Virus record (IMG/VR): IMGVR_UViG_2832142748_000002
Span: 1-64,000 of that record
Strand: one strand, 5' to 3'
Length of the DNA: 64,000 nucleotides
Source of the DNA: a virus
Taxonomy: Duplodnaviria; Caudoviricetes
Made by a program: the position numbers and the translations under genes. The notes below the pieces were generated by a model. That model searched no databases. It saw nothing but the letters and a program-made list of their open reading frames with translations, and had not been told where the DNA came from. How positions within the stretch are numbered: the stretch's first letter is position 1; each line of letters starts with the position of its first letter. Below, in pieces: positions 7,847 through 27,922 of the stretch.

Positions 7847-9412
7847 TCACTGCTTAACCATGAATATACAATTTTCCACCCATGGTAAAGTCCACCGGCA
7901 CGGGGCGATCCGCCTTGGGCCCCTGCCAGCGTCACGCGCCCGGTGGGGGATGACGTAGAGGAAGGACGGGAGCCCTCCGGGTACCCGATCCAGCGAACGC
8001 GCCTGAACGTCACCGGACAGCAAAACGCCCTGCTTCCCGTGGGGTTGGGAAGCAGGGCGAGTGACCCCGACAGGAATCGAACCTGTGGCCTGCGGTTTAG
8101 GAAACTGGCCAGTGGGGATTGAGCGGCCTTCCCCAGCCTTCCTCTGCCTTGCCAAACCTTCGTTTTTATTCACGTTTCGGCCTCCATGTAGGTCCTCAAC
8201 CTTCCTTGGTAATACCTGCGCTTCCTCAGTCTTCACGCCACGTGGACGCCACGGGTCGAGCGTCGCCGCCACGGCGTCGGAGCCCGCGCGAACGTGCTCA
8301 GGCAGCGCCACCGCGTAGTGCGCGCGCGTCGTCTCCACGTCCGCGTGGCCCAGCACTTCGGCCACCAGGCGGATGTCCTTCGTTGTCTGGTAGGCCACCG
8401 TCCCCCACGTGGAGCGCAGGTGCTTGAAGCGCAGTGTGAGGGGAGTGCCCTTGGGCCACAGCTGGAAGTTGCACCGCGGGCACCGTGAGGGGGCATCGTT
8501 CTGGCGCTCCTCCCGGAAGCCGCAGCCTTTGCGCCGACACACGTGCGTCCAGGCCTGCACCAGGCGGGCCCGCACGAGGGCGCGGCGGATGATGTCGTGG
8601 ATTCGCCAGCTCGGCCCGAAGGGCTTAGTCGTTCCGGGCCGCGGGAAGAGGTGGGGGCCCGGCGTCGCTAGCTGTTCCTCAAGCGTCGGTACCAGCACCT
8701 CGGGAATGGGCACCCGACGCTCGCGCCCACCCTTCGTGGTGTCGCGGTGTCCGCTCCGGCGCACGAGGAGGTAGCGCTCCACGAGGTGGACCTCGTCCTT
8801 GCGCAGCACGCGCACCTCGCCCTTGCGGAGTCCCGTCAGCACGCTGGTGGCAACAGCCGGGCGATGCTCCGGGCTCAGGGCGGCGAAGAGCTGGGCGACC
8901 TGCTCCGGCGTGTAGAAGCCCACTTCGCGCTTGGGCACTCGCACCTTCCCAGCCTTCTTGAAGGGATTGGGCCCGGAGAAGAGGCCGGCCTTCTCGTCCA
9001 GGAACGAGTAGAGGCCCTGCCCTGCCATCCGCACGTGCTCACGCGACTGGGGGGAGAGCTTCGTCAGCTTCGCGAGCACCTGAAGCACGTCCGCCGGCGT
9101 GACGGAGTCCACGAGTCTGGTGCCCAGCGCCGTCGCCACGTAGCGCAGCTTCTGCTCCAGGTTGCGCTTGCTGGCGAACTCCGGCGGAAGTGCATCGAGC
9201 CGCATGCGGATGGCCGCAGCCACGGTCGGTACCTCTCGTCGCTCCGCCTCCAGTCCGGCTTCCTCTCGCCACGCGCGATGCTCCACTTCGTGCGCTTCGC
9301 GGCGCGCCTCAGTGAGCGTTCTCGCGGGAATGACCCGACGGTGCGGCTTACCGTCCTTCCCCACCCAGCCAATCCGGAACTTCCCTGACGGCAGCTTCTG
9401 CGCCCAGGCCAC
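7847..9412 (-). CDS. int: Tyrosine integrase whose C-terminus reads through att into flanking DNA
   Basis: Catalytic motifs TGLRKGE, FKHLRSTW, VLGHADVETTRAHY; Cys-rich insertion; the ORF crosses the tRNA fragment. Confidence 0.95.
   Translation of the reverse strand: MAWAQKLPSGKFRIGWVGKDGKPHRRVIPARTLTEARREAHEVEHRAWREEAGLEAERREVPTVAAAIRMRLDALPPEFASKRNLEQKLRYVATALGTRLVDSVTPADVLQVLAKLTKLSPQSREHVRMAGQGLYSFLDEKAGLFSGPNPFKKAGKVRVPKREVGFYTPEQVAQLFAALSPEHRPAVATSVLTGLRKGEVRVLRKDEVHLVERYLLVRRSGHRDTTKGGRERRVPIPEVLVPTLEEQLATPGPHLFPRPGTTKPFGPSWRIHDIIRRALVRARLVQAWTHVCRRKGCGFREERQNDAPSRCPRCNFQLWPKGTPLTLRFKHLRSTWGTVAYQTTKDIRLVAEVLGHADVETTRAHYAVALPEHVRAGSDAVAATLDPWRPRGVKTEEAQVLPRKVEDLHGGRNVNKNEGLARQRKAGEGRSIPTGQFPKPQATGSIPVGVTRPASQPHGKQGVLLSGDVQARSLDRVPGGLPSFLYVIPHRARDAGRGPRRIAPCRWTLPWVENCIFMVKQ
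8021..8059 (-). terminator. Rho-independent terminator of the host tRNA gene
   Basis: Perfect 13-bp stem cgccctgcttccc/gggaagcagggcg followed by TTTTG on the minus strand, immediately 3' of the tRNA fragment. Confidence 0.8.
8061..8105 (-). other. Prophage att core: displaced 3' half of tRNA-Arg(CCU), not an intact tRNA
   Basis: Minus strand reads GT-TTCCTAA-ACCGCAGGCC-ACAGG-TTCGATT-CCTGT-CGGGGTCA-C (anticodon loop CCT, T-arm, acceptor 3' strand). The D-arm and 5' acceptor strand are absent. Confidence 0.85.
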
Positions 9413-12624: not shown

Positions 12625-13422
12625 ATGACGGGCACCAACACAACCACGGGCACCGCGGAGAAACCGCCGGAGCGCAGCTTGGTGCGCAAGCTGGCCGAGG
12701 TCATGGGCGAGGTGGAGCGCGTCCCGAAGTCAGGGCGCAACGACTTCCACCGCTACGACTACGCGACCGAGGCAGACATCGTCTCGGCCGTTCGGAAGGC
12801 CATGGCGGACCGCGCCCTCATGCTGATTCCCTCCGTGGTGAAGACGGAGTGGCGCGAGGTGGAGCGCAACAAGGGCGGCAAGGACCGAATCGCAACGCTG
12901 ACCGTGCGCTTCACACTGACCGACGGCGACAGCGGCGAAGAGCGGTCGTTCGAGGTGCTCGGCGAGGGGCAGGACCAGGGCGACAAGGCCACGTACAAGG
13001 CGCTCACCGGAGCGGTGAAGTACGCCTTGCTCAAGCTCTTCCTGATTCCCACTGGCGATGACCCGGAGGATGACGGGCAAGGCCAAAGCCAGCAGTCCCA
13101 GCGCGGAAGCCAGCAGCGCCCTCGTCAAGCAATGGACGACGGACCGCCCCCTCAGCGCACGGGTGCCCCGGCTCCTCGCACTACTCCTCGGAGTGGAGGT
13201 GCCGACGACGTCGCCGCCGCCATCGTCTCTGAAGCCGAGCAGGTGACCAAGGAGGAGTTCCCCGCGCTCTACGGGCGTGCACAAGGCCTCCCCAAGGGGA
13301 GCAAGGCTCGGGAGGTGGCGGGCGAAGCCGTGAAGGCCTCCGCAAAGCGCCTGGGCTTCTCTGCCAAGCAGGTTGCCGCCATGCAGAAGCCGGTGGGACG
13401 CGAGCCCGGCGCGGAGGGCTGA
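12625..13422 (+). CDS. erf: ERF-family ssDNA annealing recombinase
   Basis: KLAEVMGEVERVPKSGRNDFHRYDYATEADIV...GEGQDQGDKATYKALTGAVKYALLKLFLIPTGDDPE. Confidence 0.9.
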   Translation: MTGTNTTTGTAEKPPERSLVRKLAEVMGEVERVPKSGRNDFHRYDYATEADIVSAVRKAMADRALMLIPSVVKTEWREVERNKGGKDRIATLTVRFTLTDGDSGEERSFEVLGEGQDQGDKATYKALTGAVKYALLKLFLIPTGDDPEDDGQGQSQQSQRGSQQRPRQAMDDGPPPQRTGAPAPRTTPRSGGADDVAAAIVSEAEQVTKEEFPALYGRAQGLPKGSKAREVAGEAVKASAKRLGFSAKQVAAMQKPVGREPGAEG

Positions 13423-14330: not shown

Positions 14331-14486
14331 GCCCCACGAGCAACACCGCGCCACCACCTAGCGCGCGCAACACCAGCAGCACCTGCCGATGACGGGGCGA
14401 GGGCCCCCGCTGGACGTCCCAGCGCTCCCGGTTCGAGTCCGGCGTCGGCAACTCCGTCCAGCCGCAACACCAATCCCCGGAGTCGT

Positions 14487-16178: not shown

Positions 16179-17703
16179 AGCCAGCGGACGTCAGCGGCCT
16201 GCCGAAGGAGCTGGAGGAAGTCCGTCGCATCGCACTGGGCGAAGTGCCCGCCGATGAGGCGCAGGTCCGGGCCGCGCTGGCTCAGGCATGGGCCTGGCTC
16301 GCGCCGCTGACGTCCGCACTATTGCCGGCTGAACCGTCGCCCGGCGCGGCGAAGCACACGACCGAGGATGTGGAACGGTGGTTCCGGGCAGTGGTCGCGC
16401 GGACAAAGGGTTCCACCGAAACGGTGATGGCCCGGATGCTCCGGGACGCCGCGCTGGAGGGCGCTAAGGTGCCGGGGCTGGTGGCGGACAACGCCGTCCT
16501 CCTGAAGCTCGCCCTGGATGACGTCCCCGCGTGCGATTGGCAAAGCGGGCGGGGCACGTGTGACGAGACGGGGCGCCAGCCGCGGTGCCAATTCTGCCTG
16601 CGCCGGGATGAGCTGATGAACAGCCCCGGCGCATCCATGCTCGCAGAGCACGAGACGAAGGTGTCCGCCCTCCAGGCCCAGGTGGCGCATCTCACGGCCG
16701 AACTGGACAACCTGAAGGACTGCGAGCAAGGGGCGAATGCCGTTGCAGTTGAGGCGATGGCTGCGCAGCGCAAGGCCGAGTCCGAGCAGGACGAAGAACG
16801 CAAGGCGGTGGAGGCGATGACGAAGGCCATCGACAAGCACCTCCCCGGCATCTGCCCGGCGCAGTCCCCGGACGAGGGCATCCACCTGCTGGCCGAGCAG
16901 CGCGACGCCGCCCAGGCCCGCGTGGCGGAGCTGGAGCGCGAGTTGCGCATTCGCAACGATGACCACGCTTTCGAGCAGGACATGCGCATCAAGACCGAGT
17001 CCGAGCGCGACGCCCTCCGCGCAGGTGGAGGCGGTGCGCGACAGGGCGACTGAGGTGGCGGCGGCGCGGCAGGATCTGGCGGAGTGGGATCAGCAGACCG
17101 TGCTCTCATTCGAAGGGCTCCAGAAGGAAGGGCTCTCTGCATTCACCGAACTCTCGGCGGCGTTGGGGGAGGTTGTTCCTCGCCATCCCCGCCCCGCCCG
17201 CCGAGACGCGAGCCGACGAGGCGTCATGCGCGGGTGACGTCCCACCGTGCGAGGACTCCATGTGCGGCGACCCGGTGTGCACGAAGCACCGCGGCGCAAC
17301 GCCCGCCCCGAACTCTCCGGCTCTTCCGGAGGGTTCGACTCCGCCCGCCGAACCTGAAAGCGGGGCTTACACGTTGGCGGCGCGACGCTGGCTGGCGGCC
17401 GTTGAGCGCGCGGCCTCGAATGAGGCCGTCGCGAGTCGCTACCTAGTCAACGCCAATGGCGCATCCGTCCACCCCGGGGCGCTGCGCGAGGCCGTCCGCT
17501 GGGTGCTCCGCGGAGACGAGCCGGTTTGCGGCGAGCCCTCCACCGTGCAGGGCAGCGGCAAACCCGCCTCAAACCCCATGCTGTCCGCGCTCGACGTGCG
17601 CACCGCGGCGCCGCCGGGTCTGCGAGTGCGCGCCTTCGTTAACACCGTCATCGCAACAAGGGCCGGGCTCTCCTCTTCCTGTCCCGGCTCCTCACTCGCT
17701 TGA
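16175..17703 (+). pseudogene. Coiled-coil phage protein apparently broken by two frameshifts (about 17020 and 17180)
   Basis: ERDALRA continues as QVEAVRDRATEVAAARQ in another frame, then a third frame carries DVPPCEDSMCGDPVC. Confidence 0.5.
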
Positions 17704-17821
17704 GAGAGCGTTGCGGCACTTCAGTGAACCTCTGACCTCTCTGCATCCCGAGCCGCTTGAGGTGCGCCTCTCGTCTCGGGTCCTGGGTTCTGCCAAAATG
17801 CCCACGGGGGGCAGCATTCGC

Positions 17822-20800
17822 ATGAGAGAGCACATGCCCAGGCAAATTCTGACGTTGTGGCTCTGCGCCACCATGACACTCGGTGACCTCGCACAGGCCG
17901 CGCAGACACAACAGGCACAAGACGTTTCACCGAGGCTCCGCGGGCTGCTCGCAGCTCTCGATGATCCGAGCGGCCAAGTGGCGGCTGGAGCGCTGCGGTT
18001 GTTGATCAAGGAGAAGCGGGTTCCGGATGAACAGATCCCGCGTCTCGGCCGCATGCTCAAGGACCCCAATCCGCAAACCCGCCTTGACACAGCGCAGGCT
18101 TTGGGAGTCCTCGGCAAGGCCGCCAAGCAGCACGCCCCCCTCCTCACCGGCCTTCTCAGGGATCCAGACGTGTCCGTCCGCCAAGCTGCTGCGGAGGCCC
18201 TGGGAGCCATGGGTGAGGCCGCCAAGGATCAGGCTCCCCTCCTCGTCGACATGCTCAAGGACCCGGATGTGAACGTCCGAATTGCAGCAACGTTTGCGCT
18301 GAGAGAAATGGGCAAGGCCGCACAGGATCAAACCCTACGACTTACCGGCTTGCTGAAAGACCAGCACGGTGGTGTCCGCGCAGCAGCAGTGCAGGTGCTG
18401 GTAGCCATAGGCAAAGTTCCCAAGGAGGAGGCTCCGCACCTCGGCGACCTGCTCAAGGCCCCCAAGGAGAGCGTCCGCTATGCAGCAACGCAAGCGCTGG
18501 GCGCCCTGGGCGAGGCAGCCAAGGAGCAAGCTCCACTCCTCGTTGGCATGCTCAAGGATCCGGATAGTGGCGTCCGTGAGGCCGCAGTTCTAGCACTGGG
18601 TAACATGGGCGAGGCAGCCAAGGAGCAGGCTCCACTCCTCGTTGGCATGCTCAAGGACCCTAATGAGAATGTCAGTAGAGGAGCAGCAAAGGCTCTGGGC
18701 GCCATGGGCGAGGCAGCCAAGGAACAAGCCCCCCTCCTCGTTGACATGCTCAAGGATCCAGACTGGTCCATCCTCATCCCTGCTTTGCAGGCGCTGCAAG
18801 CCATGGGCAAGGCCGCCAGGGAACAGGTCCCGCGCATTAGCAACCTGCTCAAGGATCCGTCACCGTTCCGTCGAATTGTAGCAGCGGAATTGCTGGGACA
18901 CATGGGCGAGGCAGCCAAGGAGCAGGCTCCACTCCTCGTTGGCATGCTCAAGGACCCTAATGAGAATGTCAGTAAAGGAGCAGCAAAGGCTCTGGGCGCC
19001 CTGGGCGAGACAGCCAAGGAGCAGGCTCCATACCTCGCCGACATGCTCAAGGACCCTAATGAGAAAGTCCGCGATGCGGCAGTGCAAGCGCTGCAATACA
19101 TGGGCAAGGCCGCTAAGGATCAAGCTCCGCACCTTGTCGGCCTGCTCAAGGACCCCGAGAAGGACGTCCGCAAGGAAGCAGCGGCGGCACTGGGAGCCAT
19201 GGGCGAGGCAGCCAAGGAGCAGGCTCCATACCTCGCCGACATGCTCAAGGACCCCGATGAGAAAGTCCGCCTTGCAGCAGCGAAGGCGCTGAGCGACATG
19301 GGCGAGTTTGACAGGAAGTACGCGCCTCTAGCTCTGGAGCTTCTGGAGAACGAAACAGTTCAGTATGACTATGAAGCCAAGGGTCTCCTCATGACCATGG
19401 CCCCGCTCGAACTCCAGCACGTTGTCCTGCTCCTGGCGAAGGCAAGCGCGAATCCATGGGATCGCAACGACTGGCTGTTATGCGCTCACGTTACGGGCGG
19501 TGGTGAGCCACCGGTGGAGCGCGTCCTACGTTGGCTCCCAAGGCGGGCCTTCGCGGGACTCCCAACGGAGCTGACGCTCGAGGAGGCCCGGGAGACGATG
19601 CATGCGTTCGCCGTGGTCTGGCAACATTCCGGGAAGTACCCTGACCTGCGGGATGATCTAGCGGAGCAGATTGTACGAGTGGCCAGCCTTACCAAAGGCC
19701 AGTGGACGCTCACTGACGACAAGCTACTCGTGCAGCATCAGACAAACCTGAAGGCCTCCTACCCGGCGCATGCCGAGAGACTTCAGGCCATCAGGTCCTC
19801 TCTAGAGAGCTGGGGGAGAGTGAAGACCTTCGCGTGGACCTGGGTGGGGCACCTCTGCTTCTGGTTGCTCCTCCTGTTCGTCTACCCACGCTCGCCGCAA
19901 GTCCAGGCGGTTTTCTTCTGGAATCCGTGGGTGCGCACCATCACGGGCTTCGGGTATGTGGGCCTTCTGTTGACATGGGTGCCGATCCTGCGGCGCCGCC
20001 TCCTCGCGCCCTTTGCGAACCAGCTCCTGGCGGATGCAGATCTCGAGCGTTTCCCCAAGGAGAGTTACTTCCACGGCTCCCAGGTCTTCATCCCGTCCGC
20101 GGGCCGGAGCGTCCCCCTGCTCTCCGCCGTCCCCCAGCTGCGAGGCCAAGTGGTCTTGGAGGGAGCCTCGGGCCTGGGCAAGTCGCTGTTCATCCGGTAC
20201 CTGCTCCGCCACTCGAAGCAGCTCACGGTGTTTCTGCCCGCAGAGCGATGCCGGGAGGGTGTACTTGAGGCCATCCAGGCCAAGCTGGAGGGGCATGCGA
20301 AGGACACCGCCTTCCTGCAGAGCATCATTTACAGCGGCGCACTGGACATCTACATCGACGGACTCAACGAGGTGACGGCAGACACGCGTGCTCGCATCGT
20401 CCAGTTCGTCGAGCGCAACTTCCACGGCAACATCCTGCTTGCCACCCAGCGCATGGAGTGGACACCGCCCATCACGGCGCGCCTGTACGTGCTGCAGCCC
20501 CTCTCCGACGCCCAGGTGTCCGAGTTTCTGGCCAGCCGTGAGGTGCTGCTGGGTGAGAAGGCGCGGCTGCGTGGTCCAGAGTACCTCCAGTCATGTGAGC
20601 GATTCGTGCAGCGAGTCCTCGCCCCCGAGCAGCCCGAGGAGCTGCGCCTGTCGATGCGCGAGGTGCTCTCCAACCCGATGGACCTCACCGTCATCGCGCA
20701 GATGCTGGGCGAGGGGCACTCGCCGGATCTGTTCCGCCTGCGGCAGCAGCAATACGAGCTGATGGCCAGGGACTACCTGGAGGTCAACCTCGCAGAGTTC

Positions 20801-21295
20801 CCGCTGAATGGGTTCGCCGAGGAGTGCCACAGGATGCGGCTCGAGGATCGGCCGTCTCTGCCGGAGGAGCGCTTCGGTAAGGAGTTGCTGCGCCTGGAGT
20901 CCTTCAAGATCGTGGTGCGCCGGCAGTGGAAGGGGCCTGACGGGCGGGAGCACCGCGAGTGGCGTTTCCGCCATGACAAGCTTCAAGAATTCTTCATCGC
21001 CCAGGCACTCCTGGGGCAGGGCAACCCCCGCATTGCCCAGCACATGGACGATCCGCGCTTCCGGGGCGTCTACTTCCTGTTGGCGCTGCTGATGGATCCG
21101 GAGAGCGCGCATCAACTGCGAGATCGGCTGGTCGTTCACGCCGCCAGGACCCGCGACCACAGCGTGAGCGATGAGTTCGTCACCCTGCTGGAGGCGCGGC
21201 GCAAGTCCGAGCAGCTCCTGCATGCGCCGCCCCCGCGACCGCAGGATGACTCAGATCCCTCAAACAAGCACGGAGGAGGCGAGCGCGTGGCATGA
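17822..21295 (+). CDS. Signal peptide + HEAT-repeat array + 2 TM + NACHT/STAND NTPase
   Basis: About 14 x 33-aa HEAT repeats; TM segments; Walker A GASGLGKS; Walker B IYIDGLNE; WHD motif FRHDKLQEFFIA. Confidence 0.85.
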   Translation: MREHMPRQILTLWLCATMTLGDLAQAAQTQQAQDVSPRLRGLLAALDDPSGQVAAGALRLLIKEKRVPDEQIPRLGRMLKDPNPQTRLDTAQALGVLGKAAKQHAPLLTGLLRDPDVSVRQAAAEALGAMGEAAKDQAPLLVDMLKDPDVNVRIAATFALREMGKAAQDQTLRLTGLLKDQHGGVRAAAVQVLVAIGKVPKEEAPHLGDLLKAPKESVRYAATQALGALGEAAKEQAPLLVGMLKDPDSGVREAAVLALGNMGEAAKEQAPLLVGMLKDPNENVSRGAAKALGAMGEAAKEQAPLLVDMLKDPDWSILIPALQALQAMGKAAREQVPRISNLLKDPSPFRRIVAAELLGHMGEAAKEQAPLLVGMLKDPNENVSKGAAKALGALGETAKEQAPYLADMLKDPNEKVRDAAVQALQYMGKAAKDQAPHLVGLLKDPEKDVRKEAAAALGAMGEAAKEQAPYLADMLKDPDEKVRLAAAKALSDMGEFDRKYAPLALELLENETVQYDYEAKGLLMTMAPLELQHVVLLLAKASANPWDRNDWLLCAHVTGGGEPPVERVLRWLPRRAFAGLPTELTLEEARETMHAFAVVWQHSGKYPDLRDDLAEQIVRVASLTKGQWTLTDDKLLVQHQTNLKASYPAHAERLQAIRSSLESWGRVKTFAWTWVGHLCFWLLLLFVYPRSPQVQAVFFWNPWVRTITGFGYVGLLLTWVPILRRRLLAPFANQLLADADLERFPKESYFHGSQVFIPSAGRSVPLLSAVPQLRGQVVLEGASGLGKSLFIRYLLRHSKQLTVFLPAERCREGVLEAIQAKLEGHAKDTAFLQSIIYSGALDIYIDGLNEVTADTRARIVQFVERNFHGNILLATQRMEWTPPITARLYVLQPLSDAQVSEFLASREVLLGEKARLRGPEYLQSCERFVQRVLAPEQPEELRLSMREVLSNPMDLTVIAQMLGEGHSPDLFRLRQQQYELMARDYLEVNLAEFPLNGFAEECHRMRLEDRPSLPEERFGKELLRLESFKIVVRRQWKGPDGREHREWRFRHDKLQEFFIAQALLGQGNPRIAQHMDDPRFRGVYFLLALLMDPESAHQLRDRLVVHAARTRDHSVSDEFVTLLEARRKSEQLLHAPPPRPQDDSDPSNKHGGGERVA
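17930..19310 (+). repeat. Tandem 99-bp (33-aa) coding repeats
   Basis: Unit KEQAPLLVGMLKDPxxxVxxxAxxALGAMGEAA; 18604-18703 matches 18901-19000 at 99/100 nt. Confidence 0.9.
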
Positions 21296-21753: not shown

Positions 21754-22794
21754 ATGGACGCCATCTCACGCAGCCGCACCGCTCTCCTCCCCACCACCTA
21801 CCGCGAGCCCGCAGAGCAGCCCCAGCGCTCCACGCCGAAGCCCCGGGTCCTGGAGAGGTCAATCAACACCGTCGACGCATTCACGCCGCACACGCCCACC
21901 CACAAGGCGCTCGTAGACCAGGTCCGCCGCACGACGACGCCCACGGCCATCTCCATCCGCCCGCCTACCGAGGGTCTGACGAAGTCGGCGGAGAGCGAGC
22001 CGCGCGTCTCCGCCCAGGGCTTCTTCAGCTCCGTCGGCGACGCGCTGAAGGACTTCGGCGGGCGCGTGGTGGACGGAGTGGCTGGCATCGGCAAAGGCAT
22101 CTACGACAGCGTCAAGGGCACCCTGAAGAACACCTGGGAGATGGCGGAGACGTTCGGAAAGGGCATCGCCAACATCTTCACTGGCCGCTTCGCGGAGGGC
22201 TTCACCCAGCTCGGACTGAGCGTCCTCAAGGCCATCCAGACGCCGACGGACGGGCTCCTGCGCCTGGGAGGAAGCATCCTCAGCGCCATCCAGACGATGC
22301 TCTTCATCGAGCCCACGAGCCGCAAGCTGACGGGCGACGAGCTGGCGGCGCTGCACGAGGTGTACGGGGACTCCATCGACTACACGCGCATCGAGATCAA
22401 GGAAGGCAACGCGGGGCTTCTCACGGTGGGGGGACGACCCTTCACCCATGGGGACACCATCTACATTCCCAAGGACTCACTGCCCCTGCAGCCGGAACTG
22501 CTCGTGCACGAGGCGGCCCACGTGTGGCAGCACCAGCACGGGGGCAACGACTACATGTCCGAGGCCCTGGTGGCGCAGCTCTTCGGCGACGGCTACAACG
22601 TCGGCAAGGCCCTCCGGCAAGGCAAGTCCTGGGAGCAGATGAACCCGGAGCAGCAGGCGGAGTTCATTGAGTTGGCCTTCGGTCAGGGCTGCTTCGAGAC
22701 GCCGCCGGCGCCGTTCGAGCTCGGCGGCAAGGACTACACTCAACAGCTTGAGGCCGCGAAGAAGTCCCTCCGCGCCGGCCAGGGAGCACCGTGA
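21754..22794 (+). CDS. DUF4157-like HExxH zinc metallopeptidase / effector
   Basis: YGDSIDYTRIEI...PFTHGDTIY...LLVHEAAHVWQHQHGG...NPEQQAEFI. Confidence 0.75.
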   Translation: MDAISRSRTALLPTTYREPAEQPQRSTPKPRVLERSINTVDAFTPHTPTHKALVDQVRRTTTPTAISIRPPTEGLTKSAESEPRVSAQGFFSSVGDALKDFGGRVVDGVAGIGKGIYDSVKGTLKNTWEMAETFGKGIANIFTGRFAEGFTQLGLSVLKAIQTPTDGLLRLGGSILSAIQTMLFIEPTSRKLTGDELAALHEVYGDSIDYTRIEIKEGNAGLLTVGGRPFTHGDTIYIPKDSLPLQPELLVHEAAHVWQHQHGGNDYMSEALVAQLFGDGYNVGKALRQGKSWEQMNPEQQAEFIELAFGQGCFETPPAPFELGGKDYTQQLEAAKKSLRAGQGAP

Positions 22795-23204
22795 CCATGC
22801 GCCTCCACCGCGTCTTGCCGCGCGCGCTCGTCGTCCTCCAGGTGTTGCTCCTCACCGCCTGCCAACCGCCGCTGGAGGTGACGCTCGCCTCCGGCAACGA
22901 GCGCCTGCCCGGCCCCGTCTTCCTCGTCGACGAGCCGTCCCAGGACGGGGGGCCGCCGCGGTACGACGTCATCCGCGTGCTGTCCGCAGACGGGACGCAG
23001 GTGTGGCACGTCCGCGCCCTCTCCTTCGGTGGGACGCGCGGACGCCGCGTCGTCTACGGCGAGGTGCCGGAGGGCTTCGAGACGGTGCAGCCCCCACAGC
23101 CCTTGGAGAGCGGGCGTCTCTACAGCATCGGCGTCTCAGGGGAAGCGTCGGGCGCGCTGCGCTTCATCGTCGGACAGGACGGCGACGTCCGGCCGGAGAA
23201 GTAG
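22791..23204 (+). CDS. Lipoprotein (candidate immunity partner)
   Basis: Lipobox LLTA-C; GTGA overlap with the peptidase gene. Confidence 0.75.
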   Translation: MTMRLHRVLPRALVVLQVLLLTACQPPLEVTLASGNERLPGPVFLVDEPSQDGGPPRYDVIRVLSADGTQVWHVRALSFGGTRGRRVVYGEVPEGFETVQPPQPLESGRLYSIGVSGEASGALRFIVGQDGDVRPEK

Positions 23205-23443
23205 CCGCCCGCCGGACTGGAGCGCGGCACCGCGAATGCGGCGTTCGAGTAGGCAGATGATGAGAATGACCGCCGCCAAGGCCACTATAGGCGGGCCGGA
23301 GGTGCTTTTGCCATATCTGCGCAAGCATACCGTCACATTGCCAAGCTTGACAGAGGGCAAGATATTGGGCTTTGCCGGCTTGTCCTTACTTTTCCGCCTG
23401 TGCTATAGTTGAACTACAACCCATTGCCCTTCCTAATCTTCCT

Positions 23444-24154
23444 ATGAAATCATCAAGCGCACTTCTTGTTCCTTTAGCCGCCTTCTTGATCCTCGCCGGC
23501 TGCGGCGGCACTCAAGATGAGGCGTTCAATACACTGGAAGACCAACTAAATGCTCTGATTGCACATGAAGAAGGAAGCTCCAGCGGGGAAGCTTGGTCGC
23601 AGCGTATCACTCAAGATGCTTTGACAATCTCGCTTTCATCAGACAGCGATCCACAATCGGTCGAAAGGAAGTTCGAATTAACGATTAAGGACAACAAGAG
23701 CATCCCAATCGAGGAGGAACTTGGGCATACCGAGATTTTGCCCTCATCGGATCTTAGCCTTCTGGTTCTTCATTCCAGTGCCAGCAATGGCATTTACATC
23801 TTCAGCCTTGGAACCGACCAGAATCGCAAGGCAATTGAGCTTTTGAAGAACGATCCGATCCTCAAGACCGCCATCAAGGCTGACGTGCTTTGCGATGGGA
23901 TAGCACTATCTTCCGGTTCCTGGAGGCGAGATGCTCTTCATCCAAAAGATGAAGTTTCGGCCTTTTATGCCCAGCCTGATAGTGGCGGTGGCGGTGGCGG
24001 TGGCACGGCACCTTCCTGCACCTCAGGAGGCGCAGGCTCTTCAAGCTGCTCCATCTCGGAGGCTTATAACATGGGCTGCAGCGTTACCTGTAACGCCGGC
24101 TATTACGCCTGCTGCATGTCGAGCAACACTACATGCAAGTGCTTCAAGGGGTAA
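23444..24154 (+). CDS. Lower-GC lipoprotein with a C-terminal Cys-rich domain
   Basis: Lipobox ILAG-C; poly-Gly linker then SCTSGGAGSSSCS...CSVTCNAGYYACC...CKC. Confidence 0.7.
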   Translation: MKSSSALLVPLAAFLILAGCGGTQDEAFNTLEDQLNALIAHEEGSSSGEAWSQRITQDALTISLSSDSDPQSVERKFELTIKDNKSIPIEEELGHTEILPSSDLSLLVLHSSASNGIYIFSLGTDQNRKAIELLKNDPILKTAIKADVLCDGIALSSGSWRRDALHPKDEVSAFYAQPDSGGGGGGGTAPSCTSGGAGSSSCSISEAYNMGCSVTCNAGYYACCMSSNTTCKCFKG

Positions 24155-24369
24155 GTCCTTCCTCTACATCGTTGCCTCCAAGTCCTTTCTCGTGGACAAG
24201 ATCAACGACCCCTCAATTCTGAGAACTGCAAGGTTCGCCACCACGAGAACCCTGTGTCGGGGGATTCCCTAGATTGTTGGACTGCGCGCGCGGCGTTACT
24301 CGTCGTCCAAACTCGGGCGGGAGGAGGCGCAATGATCCGCTTGGGGTTGTAGCGCCCCTTCGGTGAGGC

Positions 24370-24568
24370 ATGGCCTCCCTCTTCCGCCGTGCCCTCACGG
24401 CCTTGGGCTTCCTGCCCAGCCGCCAAGGGCCCCCTCGTCCACGGCCTGCCCATCTTCTCGTTCTCGCCCCGGCGCGGCAGCCGAGAGGTGCTCGTTGCGT
24501 ACCGGGAGAACGAGGGGCTGCACGTCGTGGTGGACCAGGACGGCAGCGTGCGACCGGAGAAGGAGTAG
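24370..24568 (+). pseudogene. Frameshifted small ORF ending ...VVVDQDGSVRPEKE
   Basis: One frameshift in a C run near 24430 joins MASLFRRAL... to LVHGLPIFSFSPRRG...; its 3' end resembles that of 22791-23204. Confidence 0.4.
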
Positions 24569-24660
24569 CGCGCCTGGGTCGGTCCGCGCGTCCTACCCAA
24601 CAGGATGCACTCGCGGCCGTGACTTAACTTTCTCGTTTTGCCGTGCTGGCATGTTGAGCC

Positions 24661-25302
24661 ATGTCAGCCGCTTTCGTCCTCCGCAGCGCCGTGAGCGCCG
24701 CCGCGATCCTCGCCCTCGCCGGGTGCGGGTCGGCTACCGTCGGTGGGGGTGGTAGTTCTGCGCGTGCGAAGTGGGTCGGCTCGGTCGTCAGGACGCCGGA
24801 CGGCGGGCAGCTGCGCACGACCATCTACTACGGGCCCTGGCAGTGCAGCGCCGCGTTCCTGTCCCGCTGCGAGTCGAAGTGCGCGGCGCAGGGCTACCCT
24901 CTCATGGGCTGCATGTGGCTGGCCGACATCAAGGGGGACTGGCAGGGGCGCTACCTCTTCATGCCCGCGGAGGCCGGTGGCCGCCTCGCCATCACCCACT
25001 GCTGTTGCGATTACCCGACCGTGTCGAACGGCCGCCAGTTGCGGGAGAAGTGGAAAAACGCCCGTGAAGGCTTTCGTCGCCAGTGGGGCTCTGAGTTCGG
25101 AGAGTGGCCGTCAACGAACGGGGCCAACTGGCAGGGCCACCACATCTTCGATTTGGCGCACGGCGGTCCGCCGGTGGCGCCCGACAACGTGCTTCCGGTG
25201 CCGCAGGACGTCCACCAAGTCTTCAACGACGAATACCCCGCCTGCTACGCCCCTGGCGGCAAATGGCTCACGCCAGGTCCCGCGCGGCCGTACGTGGACT
25301 GA
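24661..25302 (+). CDS. SitA-like lipoprotein toxin with HNH-type nuclease (copy 2)
   Basis: Lipobox ILALAG-C; paralogue of 3900-4544. Confidence 0.8.
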   Translation: MSAAFVLRSAVSAAAILALAGCGSATVGGGGSSARAKWVGSVVRTPDGGQLRTTIYYGPWQCSAAFLSRCESKCAAQGYPLMGCMWLADIKGDWQGRYLFMPAEAGGRLAITHCCCDYPTVSNGRQLREKWKNAREGFRRQWGSEFGEWPSTNGANWQGHHIFDLAHGGPPVAPDNVLPVPQDVHQVFNDEYPACYAPGGKWLTPGPARPYVD

Positions 25303-25311
25303 GGAGCCACC

Positions 25312-25770
25312 ATGTCCATGGAAAGCCTGCTGGCCGAAGTCTCCCGACTCCACTTCCCTCGCCCTCCTGCCACGCTCGCGCAGGTCGCCGCCTTCGAGGC
25401 ACGCGTGGGGTGGAGGCTTGATGAGGACCTGCGCGCCTTCTACCTGCACTGCGATGGATGTGATCTCTTCGTTTCCTCGCCGGACACCCGCTTCCGCGTG
25501 CTGCCGCTGGAGCAAATCATGCGGGCGCGCATCGCCGTCCGCGGCAACGACAGGGACGAAGCCGGAGCGGCATCCCTCTACACGCTCGTGGACATGCAGG
25601 ACTCCGACTACGTCGTCCTGGACGTGGCACGGAGTGAGTCCGGCCGCTACTCCCTCTTCGACGCGTGGCACGAGACGTTCCCCGAACTGGTGCCTGTTGC
25701 ATCGTCCTTCAGCGAGTTCCTGGAGAAGGCGCTTCGCAGCAGCAACAGCGCCTTCTGGCTGGACGGATGA
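25312..25770 (+). CDS. SMI1/KNR4 immunity protein (copy 2)
   Basis: PATLAQVAAFEARVGWRLDEDLRAFYLHCDG; paralogue of 4555-5031. Confidence 0.9.
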   Translation: MSMESLLAEVSRLHFPRPPATLAQVAAFEARVGWRLDEDLRAFYLHCDGCDLFVSSPDTRFRVLPLEQIMRARIAVRGNDRDEAGAASLYTLVDMQDSDYVVLDVARSESGRYSLFDAWHETFPELVPVASSFSEFLEKALRSSNSAFWLDG

Positions 25771-27002: not shown

Positions 27003-27710
27003 TCAGGCGGCGCGGGCAACCGTGGCCGCGCCTGCCTCAAGGCGCCGCGCGGCGGCCTCGCAGTAGCGCTCTTCCAGTTCCACGCCGACTGCGCGGAGCC
27101 CAAGTGACTGCGCGGCGACGAGCGTGGCCCCGGAGCCGACGAACGGATCCAGGACGAGGCCGCCCGTCGGGCAGGAGCGCTCCAGCAGGTAGCTCAGCAG
27201 GTTGACCGGCTTCTCGGTGGGGTGCGTGCGCGCCCGCGCGGGCACCGGCGGGTAGCCATCGAGGACCGCGCCGTGCCGCTTCCCAGCGAGCGCGCGACGT
27301 GTCGGCCCGGCGCCGTGCAGCACCACCTCGTAGTCCGGCGCGAAGCTGGCGGCGCAGTCACCCATGCCGCCGCGCGCCTTCCACCACATCAGCGCGCCCT
27401 TGATCTTCAGGTGGGCGCTAGCCGCGTCGAAGAAGTCCGGCCAGCTCTCCCAGTGGCAGAAGACGAAGGCGTGCAGGTCCGGCTTCAGCGCGGGCCCCGC
27501 AGCCGTGAGCGCCTGGCGGAAGACGCGCATGCCCTGGCGGGAGCCGTCCGCACGAATGGCGGCGCCGCTCTTCCCCTTTGCCTCGTAGGCCATCCCGTAG
27601 GGCGGGTCGGTGAGGAGCACGTCCACGGATCCGGACGGGAGTCCGGGCAGCGCGTCGCGGCAGTCGGCATGGAGCAGGGTGATGGTGTCGGTCTGGAAGT
27701 AGGGCTTCAC
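27003..27710 (-). CDS. Beta-class N6-A/N4-C DNA methyltransferase
   Basis: TDPPYG precedes HPTEKP and DPFVGSGAT; GTG start at 27710. Confidence 0.9.
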   Translation of the reverse strand: MKPYFQTDTITLLHADCRDALPGLPSGSVDVLLTDPPYGMAYEAKGKSGAAIRADGSRQGMRVFRQALTAAGPALKPDLHAFVFCHWESWPDFFDAASAHLKIKGALMWWKARGGMGDCAASFAPDYEVVLHGAGPTRRALAGKRHGAVLDGYPPVPARARTHPTEKPVNLLSYLLERSCPTGGLVLDPFVGSGATLVAAQSLGLRAVGVELEERYCEAAARRLEAGAATVARAA

Positions 27711-27922
27711 TCTGGGGGCCTCGTCGGGCACGTGGGGCGAGGTGCACCACACGCGCGCGTGGTGCACACGGGATGCCGCTCGGCTGCCATCCTCACTATC
27801 CAGACGTACAGTTCTCAGGAAGGACTGCCACATGGACTGGTAGTCCAAGTCCTTCCGGTGCTTCAGTTCGTCATCAAGCGTGGGACGGGGTGTCTCACGT
27901 CATCGAAGAAAGGAAGTCTGGA

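Follow-up and report, generated by a model that had tools for sequence, protein, structure and literature searches.

The stretch of DNA analyzed here (64,000 nucleotides, positions 1 to 64,000 of IMG/VR virus record IMGVR_UViG_2832142748_000002; Duplodnaviria, Caudoviricetes), referred to below as the window, comes from the genome of a Corallococcus-like myxobacterium. A gene on its plus strand (17834-21295) encodes a protein of 1153 aa with the following order of domains: a Sec-type signal peptide, a HEAT-repeat solenoid, a helical juxtamembrane region, a transmembrane (TM) helix, a conserved and weakly hydrophobic segment, a NACHT module, and a tail. The gene is present as a single copy in this genome and is called the receptor gene here, after the function that is proposed for it.

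The receptor gene lies within an intact open reading frame (ORF) that runs from 17456 to 21295 on the plus strand. Its start was set at the ATG at 17834 (MPRQ...), which agrees with the database gene call (P0002, 1153 aa) and with the allele in Corallococcus exiguus (P0003). An earlier note on this DNA, made from the sequence alone, had placed the start at 17822; an in-frame ATG is indeed found there, but the database call and the C. exiguus allele both use the ATG four codons later. The start of the long ORF at 17456 was rejected, as the region upstream of approximately 17578 is not conserved and its P/R/A-rich translation resembles that of non-coding DNA. The first 126 codons of the long ORF yield a translation rich in P, R, A, and S. 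Because homology to the C. exiguus locus begins at approximately 17578, the gene was taken as 17834-21295 with a conserved 255-nt upstream region (17578-17833, +) that is possibly the promoter or leader of the cassette. In a DNA alignment, the segment from 17578 to the ATG is approximately 97-100% identical to the C. exiguus prophage locus (L002), and the sequences are unrelated further upstream. A sharp homology breakpoint between the two prophages is found at 17578, 255 nt before the receptor start. Between the two prophage alleles, conservation is higher in this non-coding stretch than in the HEAT coding part, suggesting that a regulatory region has been retained with the cassette. No sigma-70 consensus was found in 17578-17833, and a scan for promoters and terminators gave nothing convincing at either end of the receptor gene. 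Two identical sigma-70-like sites (TTGGCA-17-GAGAAT) were observed at 18642-18670 and 18939-18967 (+), within two HEAT units that are 297 nt apart; both stem from one repeat sequence, of which they are copies, and are probably chance matches.

The N terminus had been described earlier as signal-peptide-like, and its conservation in the family agrees with this description. Residues 1-22 (17834-17899, +) read as a Sec-type signal peptide with a basic n-region (MPR), an h-region of 13 residues (ILTLWLCATMTLG), and a c-region in which DLAQA is followed by A, so that A-Q-A occupies positions -3 to -1 of the predicted cleavage site. The h-region of this protein is moderately hydrophobic, with a mean Kyte-Doolittle (KD) value of 1.9. 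A strong N-terminal h-region is conserved across phyla and is found in 154 of the 190 full-length family members, most of the others being visibly mis-started inside the signal peptide or the repeats. Cyanobacterial signal peptides end in LPWVSA before KE and myxobacterial ones in GGxARA before AP; VSA before K or ARA before A is typical. One subfamily carries exactly two Cys residues, the first 2-4 residues past the cut and the second 20-30 residues further on, and from its placement in the sequence this pair would look like a periplasmic disulphide, as expected in an oxidizing compartment. A lipoprotein was rejected for want of a lipobox, and export by the twin-arginine translocation (Tat) route for want of an RR motif.

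Residues 28-522 (17915-19399, +) make up a HEAT solenoid of the PBS-lyase/alphaRep type, which is predicted to be periplasmic. The Pfam models HEAT_2 (E 6.7e-86, eight stretches) and HEAT (E 7.4e-72) cover residues ~40-530, and Tandem Repeats Finder reports a period of 99 nt in 12.3 copies (18090-19306) with a super-period of 297 nt. Counting by hand gave 13 canonical units of 33 aa (residues 61-489; 18014-19300) between an N-cap and a C-cap, both degenerate, in good agreement with the approximately 14 repeats reported before. The consensus unit is GEAAKEQAPLLVGMLKDPDESVRIAAAQALGAM, and variability is focused on unit positions 19-24, 26-27, 29, and 32. In a PDB profile search, a profile that includes the repeats matches engineered alphaRep structures with E values down to 5e-46. 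As in alphaRep and PBS-lyase-type HEAT proteins, the variable positions follow the conserved 'DP' turn and lie on the second helix of the unit; unlike alphaRep, the protein is natural, predicted to be exported, and fused to a membrane NACHT. The units at residues 259-291 and 358-390 share 97% DNA identity, a degree of similarity that indicates a recent duplication of three units. All NCBIfam matches to HEAT and lyase models are sub-threshold, and the lyase models score far below their cut-offs; a phycobilin (phycobilisome) lyase identity was rejected.

Between the solenoid and the membrane lies a helical juxtamembrane region (residues 523-664; 19400-19825, +), which is variable in sequence and whose last helix continues into the TM helix. 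An AlphaFold2 (AF2) model of residues 514-1153, built from a 50-sequence alignment (predicted local distance difference test, pLDDT, 91.8; predicted template modeling score, pTM, 0.77), has helices at model residues 14-127 and then a continuous helix at 131-170. In this model, one uninterrupted helix of 40 residues spans the juxtamembrane region and the TM helix.

Hydropathy analysis reveals two hydrophobic segments (residues 666-684 and 703-719), which the earlier note had taken for two TM helices. Both segments are present, but only the one at 666-684 behaves as a TM helix by hydropathy, by the Hessa scale, and in the AF2 model. Topology was studied in an alignment of 231 sequences anchored on an invariant FWN motif, and the positions of the segments relative to the Walker A motif in 143 cluster representatives. 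The TM helix (TM1; 19829-19885, +) occupies positions -114 to -92 relative to Walker A and is strongly hydrophobic in all representatives (KD up to 1.7 here and 2.8 in homologues); its uncharged core of approximately 16-23 residues contains a near-invariant His (H673 here), and the helix has an invariant Trp. The loop that follows has K/R at three positions and no acidic residue, and separates the hydrophobic segments by 18 residues. The second segment, at -77 to -56 from Walker A, is usually below threshold. It comprises 17 residues (ILGxGYVGxLLTWVPFL), is rich in Gly and Pro, and is preceded by RR and followed by RRK in the family (RT and RRR here). The best-conserved part of the protein, residues 685-720 (19886-19993, +), consists of the loop (YPRSP-VQA-FFWNPWVR) and the Gly-rich ITGFGYVGLLLTWVPIL, and is predicted by entropy, the Hessa scale, and AF2 to lie at the cytoplasmic face without spanning the membrane. 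When the Hessa biological scale was summed over the best 19-mer, TM1 gave +0.4 here (family mean 2.1) and the second segment +5.2 (mean +7.0); TM1 is the better candidate for membrane insertion in 97% of members. The AF2 model breaks the second segment into short helices, and from approximately model residue 196 the chain superposes on the region that precedes the nucleotide-binding domain (NBD) in NLRC4 and NLRP3 (VIA comparison). On these sequence and model data, the second segment is unlikely to cross the membrane and would sit at its cytoplasmic face, and the protein is probably single-pass, N-out, and C-in. If the protein had two genuine TM helices in addition to the signal peptide, its ATPase would end up on the periplasmic side, in a compartment that lacks ATP. 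With a single TM helix, the HEAT part comes to lie outside and the NACHT inside, and this is the sole arrangement that keeps the ATPase cytoplasmic. The earlier placement of the NACHT on the cytoplasmic side is consistent only if the second segment does not traverse the membrane, as the data indicate; combined with two TM helices, as it was written, it does not hold. A KAP P-loop NTPase was rejected, because the hydrophobic segments are 60-115 residues before Walker A and outside the NBD, and there is no Pfam match to KAP_NTPase.

The NACHT module (residues 750-1130; 20081-21223, +) is delimited by PDB profile, Foldseek, and VIA matches and consists of the NBD (750-888), helical domain 1 (HD1, 889-963), a winged-helix domain (WHD, 964-1048), and helical domain 2 (HD2, 1049-1130). 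The three motifs recognized earlier, GASGLGKS (777-784), IDGLNE (841-846), and FRHDKLQEFF (1045-1054), are all present. Walker A (20162-20185, +) fits GxxxxGK[ST], and five of its residues (G, S, G, G, and K) do not vary among 50 homologues. Walker B (20342-20371, +), which reads D-G-L-N-E at 842-846, keeps the small residue and the second acidic residue, and the first acidic position is Asn in nearly all members. TQ(R/P) occupies the site of TSRP in nucleotide-binding leucine-rich-repeat receptors (NLRs). The motif FRHDKxxEFF (FRHDK at 20966-20995, +) is near-invariant, falls at the end of the WHD in the AF2 model, and resembles FxHxSFQEF of NLRs, the equivalence of the His being one of motif resemblance alone.

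A profile of 12 short homologues had a single significant match in PDB, human NLRC4 (E 4.7e-5), from Walker A through Walker B and beyond. The top ranks of a Foldseek search with the AF2 model are all animal NLRs. By VIA, the model matches autoinhibited NLRC4 (4kxf) with Z 19.7 and a root-mean-square deviation (rmsd) of 4.2 A over 375 residues (model 196-613 against chain 94-570), and NLRP3, NOD2, NLRP9, and NLRP1 with Z 17-19 (18-19 for NLRP3 and NOD2). The NB-ARC of NRC1 gives Z 12.3 and proteasomal and clamp-loader AAA+ proteins approximately 12. Active NLR conformers give lower Z values, with an rmsd of 13-15 A compared to approximately 4 A for inactive ones. These scores and the fit to the inactive conformer argue for a complete NBD-HD1-WHD-HD2 unit in the closed state, and the module is modeled in a closed, ADP-type form. 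In a protein-language-model atlas, 57% of the members of the nearest cluster carry Pfam NACHT, and one homologue (P0171) scores 20 bits against that model, under the cut-off of 26.7. By sequence profile and model, the module files as NACHT-like, in a divergent branch outside the current Pfam model. The earlier assignment to the NACHT-type STAND (signal transduction ATPases with numerous domains) proteins is thus upheld by the NLRC4 profile match and by a VIA score well above those of NB-ARC and AAA+ folds. The C-terminal tail (residues 1131-1153; 21224-21292, +) is as short as had been remarked: its 23 residues are unconserved, with a pLDDT of approximately 50 and low alignment occupancy, and no effector domain was detected in Pfam, NCBIfam, or PADLOC.

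Conservation changes sharply at the membrane. In the 50-sequence alignment, column entropy is approximately 3 bits from the last repeats through the juxtamembrane region to the helix toward the membrane. It falls to 1.97 bits in TM1 and 1.28 in the loop that follows, reaches its lowest value in the protein in the second segment (1.15), and is 1.59 in the NBD. There is a step at TM1 from approximately 3 bits outside to 1.1-2.2 bits inside. Compared to the C. exiguus allele, 128 of the 132 differences, including a repeat indel of 39 aa, are in residues 1-658, and the other 495 residues hold four. Non-synonymous (dN) and synonymous (dS) divergence between the two prophage alleles was estimated by the Nei-Gojobori method. 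The dN/dS ratio is 0.52 in the HEAT part (dN 0.080, dS 0.153), 0.68 in the pre-TM part (0.064, 0.093), 0.05 in the TM and interface part (0.006, 0.114), and 0.12 in the NACHT (0.003, 0.026). The ectodomain is evolving approximately 25 times faster than the NACHT at non-synonymous sites. The allelic differences are only modestly enriched at positions that vary among paralogous units (29 of 63, compared to 22.9 expected), and they peak at unit positions 19-21 and 24-25.

Homologues of the same architecture, for which the earlier note had proposed a search, are numerous, and the architecture is conserved over hundreds of homologue clusters. A search with the TM and NACHT module recovered the representatives of 855 clusters (50% identity) at E<1e-3, of which 466 also pass E<1e-30, and a word-indexed protein search gave 804 matches. 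For nearly all of the best 120 of these 804, the annotation is "HEAT repeat domain-containing" or "PBS lyase"; "NACHT domain-containing" is used for a few N-truncated fragments. A scan of one genome per species located 258 loci, the best 80 of which are mostly from Nostocales and other filamentous cyanobacteria; these 80 also include Archangium, Hyalangium, Vitiosangium, a Planctomycetota metagenome-assembled genome (MAG), and a Bipolaricaulia MAG, often with two or three copies per genome. The cytoplasmic module of this protein is 50-54% identical to cyanobacterial ones. The ectodomains vary in length (proteins of ~650 to >1700 aa) and are almost always HEAT arrays. The gene occurs in 8 of 121 sampled Myxococcaceae species genomes, including two of eight in this genus.

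Several members depart from the common plan or occur in multiple copies. Some (P0134, P0155, and P0196) have a second STAND NTPase (nSTAND1, nSTAND6, or AAA_16) after the NACHT module; these are either true tandem STANDs or the result of neighboring genes having been merged. Short homologues of 456-504 aa (P0161, P0237, P0255, and P0264) start just before the TM helix and are without a HEAT ectodomain; they may be fragments or true 'sensor-less' TM-NACHT proteins. Archangium violaceum Cb vi76 has two paralogues a few kb apart on NZ_JPMI01000299.1 (L010 and L011) and a third on another contig. At least two copies are also found in Mastigocoleus, Hyalangium, and several Nostoc genomes.

The genomic surroundings of three chromosomal loci (in Archangium, Myxococcus, and N. 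punctiforme) are unrelated to each other. All-against-all clustering of the flanking ORFs (+/-4 kb) of the 80 loci revealed no conserved neighbor, as nothing but the gene and the shadow ORFs antisense to it is shared across phyla. When the protein was compared with PADLOC, only HEAT-containing models matched, via the repeats; the NTPase part gave one negligible match (E 0.057, 8 bits, residues 944-985), and no Avs model was among the matches. Megablast of window positions 7000-31000 against INPHARED gave no match.

The window from 7847 to 64000 is largely a siphovirus-like prophage according to PHROGs, with an integrase (7847-9412), an Erf-like annealing protein (12625-13422), a DNA methyltransferase (27003-27848), tail protein J, a tape measure protein of 1247 aa, a major head protein, a portal, and a large terminase. 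The receptor gene is placed between the Erf-like gene and the methyltransferase, with the early genes on one side and a block of cargo genes on the other. The G+C content at its third codon positions (GC3) is approximately 0.70, compared to approximately 0.9 in the structural genes, and its composition is foreign to the prophage. The 99%-related allele of C. exiguus occupies the corresponding site in a related prophage, with a syntenic downstream part and a different early region; the gene therefore behaves as a moron (cargo) cassette. The genes downstream of it (window 21754-25770; products of 346, 137, 213, and 152 aa) are syntenic with L002 14037-16688 of the C. exiguus prophage, in which the 152-aa product carries SMI1_KNR4 (SMI1/KNR4; SUKH immunity-like). 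On account of this domain, a toxin-immunity cargo pair probably adjoins the receptor. Ten flanking ORFs gave no match in Pfam. ARAGORN detected a 69-nt tRNA-Thr (anticodon CGT) at 14384-14452 (+), in the early region of the prophage.

We consider it reasonably likely that the product is a single-pass (N-out, C-in) inner-membrane STAND receptor of the NACHT branch, which serves as a stand-alone sensor in conflict (defense or exclusion) and is carried as prophage cargo. An exported solenoid that varies, conservation that rises sharply at the membrane, and an autoinhibited NACHT that stays constant inside are together what we infer, from sequence and model, to be the anatomy of an outside-in receptor. 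The gene is also patchily distributed, autonomous, and carried by a prophage, and its family has paralogues and has spread between phyla; such features usually mark conflict systems. The Sec signal peptide would export a HEAT solenoid of ~500 aa, similar to alphaRep, to the periplasm, where it would be the variable, ligand-binding part. From the juxtamembrane region, a long helix would run through one TM helix to the conserved aromatic and Gly-rich segment at the cytoplasmic face, followed by the complete NACHT module in its closed form. Binding of a ligand outside the cytoplasm would be transmitted via this helix and release the autoinhibition of the NACHT; nucleotide exchange and oligomerization would come next. 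Candidate ligands are an envelope-crossing component of an infecting phage and material from another cell; the earlier note had proposed injection machinery or incoming outer-membrane-exchange cargo. The output would most likely be the clustering of the conserved TM and interface segments, by which the membrane might be disturbed or opened (damage or a channel), and recruitment of an unlinked partner is the alternative. Clustering in the membrane would be the most economical output, because there is no enzymatic effector and the membrane-interface segment is the best-conserved one.

Several points weigh against this interpretation. The defense role is circumstantial, as no effector was identified, no member matched in PADLOC through the NTPase part, and no homologue was found in two phage collections, INPHARED (tblastn of the protein) and IMG/VR (pattern scan), which may lack records close to this genome. 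Pfam NACHT (PF05729) gives no match even at E<=10, and AAA_16 and AAA_22 match weakly (E ~0.01). The Walker B sequence DGLNE differs from the NACHT signature D[GAS]hDE given in the preprint of Kibby et al. Export and topology are based on our own hydropathy and charge analysis; the h-region of this protein, at KD 1.9, falls under the cut of 2.0 that was applied to the family, and the positive-inside rule alone leaves a hairpin possible. The dN/dS of the ectodomain is below 1 (0.52-0.68), and its dS is also raised (0.15, compared to 0.03). The raised dS suggests recombination as a contributor, and recombination or relaxed constraint could account for part of the contrast between ectodomain and NACHT.

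Three other explanations have to be weighed, the best of which keeps the architecture and topology and changes the purpose. The protein might be a signaling receptor of multicellular bacteria for envelope state, kin or neighbor cues, or development, whose NACHT acts as a switch or scaffold for an unlinked partner, with the prophage copy a passenger. Most homologues are indeed chromosomal, beside ordinary genes and outside obvious defense islands, the family is concentrated in filamentous cyanobacteria and myxobacteria, no effector domain is present, and a cytoplasmic module that is 50-54% identical across phyla would suit a fixed contact with a conserved partner. Yet no partner gene is conserved within +/-4 kb, the distribution is patchy even inside one genus, the ectodomain turns over fast, with gain or loss of repeats between 99%-related alleles, and the gene is an autonomous cassette in two different prophage backbones. 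We regard this explanation as improbable. The HEAT solenoid could also be an anchor or scaffold (for example, on peptidoglycan or a periplasmic complex), in which case the NACHT would sense a cytoplasmic cue, as has been proposed for short-tailed bNACHT01-like proteins, and signaling would run inside-out. An anchor would be expected to be conserved, yet this ectodomain is variable, most of all at certain positions of the repeat. NACHT proteins whose C-terminal extension is only short do exist and defend against phage (Kibby et al. preprint), and there are family members with little or no ectodomain (P0161, P0237, and P0264), but these short forms may be fragments from metagenomic contigs. An inside-out anchor is in our opinion quite unlikely.

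The last alternative concerns topology: if both hydrophobic segments crossed the membrane as a hairpin and the N-terminal stretch were no signal peptide, the HEAT and NACHT parts would both be cytoplasmic and the protein merely membrane-anchored. Two hydrophobic segments with a loop of 18 residues between them, and the marginal N-terminal h-region of this protein, would fit such a hairpin, which is also compatible with the charge bias taken by itself. However, distant phyla share the signal peptide and its cleavage site of the AxA type, and in one subfamily the Cys pair comes after it. The second segment, of 17 Gly- and Pro-rich residues, has a strongly positive insertion cost, it is broken in the AF2 model, and its end aligns with the soluble region before the NBD of NLRs. 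A periplasmic loop would moreover carry a charge of approximately +3 and no acidic residue. The hairpin is very unlikely, slightly more so than the anchor. Returning to the conflict receptor, a bolder form of it may be put forward tentatively, as a possibility that we hold to be doubtful. The protein would then be the first NLR-type receptor to sense outside the cytoplasm: its hypervariable periplasmic HEAT solenoid would capture a foreign molecule that crosses the envelope (for example, a tail or ejection protein of a phage, or cargo that another cell has passed on), one TM helix would pass this on to NACHT oligomerization, and a bundle of TM and interface segments (with the buried His673 and GxGYVG) would permeabilize the membrane, forming a membrane-resident 'resistosome' that the prophage uses to exclude competitors.

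The closest structural likeness is to animal NLRs (NLRC4, NLRP3, and NOD2), with which the protein shares NBD-HD1-WHD-HD2 over ~375 residues (Z 17-20) in a predicted closed state, Walker A, a Walker B of the form DG-h-x-E, and a WHD motif (F-x-H...QEFF) that resembles the one with the ADP-contacting His. It differs from them in several respects: the repeats are N-terminal, of the HEAT and not the LRR (leucine-rich repeat) kind, and predicted to be extracytoplasmic; the NACHT follows a TM helix; CARD and PYD effectors are lacking; and sequence identity is only 10-15%. To our knowledge, the cytoplasm is the compartment surveyed by all characterized NLR/STAND immune receptors, be they from animals, plants, fungi, or bacteria. 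Outside it, surveillance falls to unrelated receptor classes, such as Toll-like receptors and receptor kinases. Toll-like receptors and plant receptor kinases have a signal peptide, extracytoplasmic solenoid repeats, a single TM helix, and a cytoplasmic signaling domain, so the likeness to the protein described here is one of layout logic. There is no homology, and the engine here is an NLR-type NTPase and not a TIR domain or a kinase.

Among bacterial proteins, the bNACHT family (Kibby et al., bioRxiv 10.1101/2022.07.19.500537) likewise represents a NACHT-type STAND in multicellular bacteria, and the same preprint counts HEAT repeats among the 'antigen-receptor-type' sensors. In bNACHT proteins, however, sensors and TM regions are C-terminal and effectors N-terminal, whereas no effector is found here; the order is inverted with respect to the effector-NACHT-sensor plan of bNACHT and Avs, as the earlier note had stated, and reads signal peptide, HEAT, TM, NACHT, and a 23-aa tail. 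The available part of Table S1 of Kibby et al. lists no bacterial architecture with HEAT before NACHT and none of the homologue accessions that were searched; the table, as far as available, gives no TM annotation, so that the absence of 'TM+NACHT' from it is uninformative. Avs/AVAST proteins (PMC13581612) are also single-gene STAND sensors, which recognize phage proteins by a variable repeat or helical sensor and then oligomerize, but they are located in the cytoplasm and have their effectors (enzymatic or TM) at the N terminus and their sensors at the C terminus. Zorya ZorAB and the anti-sigma factor DdvA of M. xanthus (PMC11506125) are membrane proteins proposed or shown to couple envelope events to anti-phage responses, DdvA doing so in a myxobacterium. 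Both are unrelated to the present protein and differ in output (a motor-like complex; release of an extracytoplasmic function (ECF) sigma factor), and the analogy is conceptual only. A PNAS 2024 paper predicted periplasm-facing lectin sensors in some STAND proteins diversified by diversity-generating retroelements (DGRs), and a 2025 preprint mentions "transmembrane STAND ATPases" as sensors fused to proteases. Membrane-associated STANDs are therefore already a known idea.

In the published literature, we found no description of this family with a signal peptide, HEAT repeats, a TM helix, and a NACHT, nor a paper that mentions its members. The family is probably missing from censuses of NLRs and defense systems, because its members are annotated only as "HEAT repeat" or "PBS lyase" and are missed by the Pfam NACHT model and, for the NTPase part, by PADLOC. 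A natural alphaRep-like array with recent duplications of its units is a ready example of how a binder may be diversified. If the proposed function is true, the logics of cytoplasmic NLRs and of extracytoplasmic receptors would be merged in one polypeptide, via a single TM helix. Several questions could then be put to a direct test: whether phages or competitors are noticed by bacteria before any DNA has entered, how the gating of a STAND NTPase works through a membrane, and whether the TM segment of a NACHT protein can itself be the effector.

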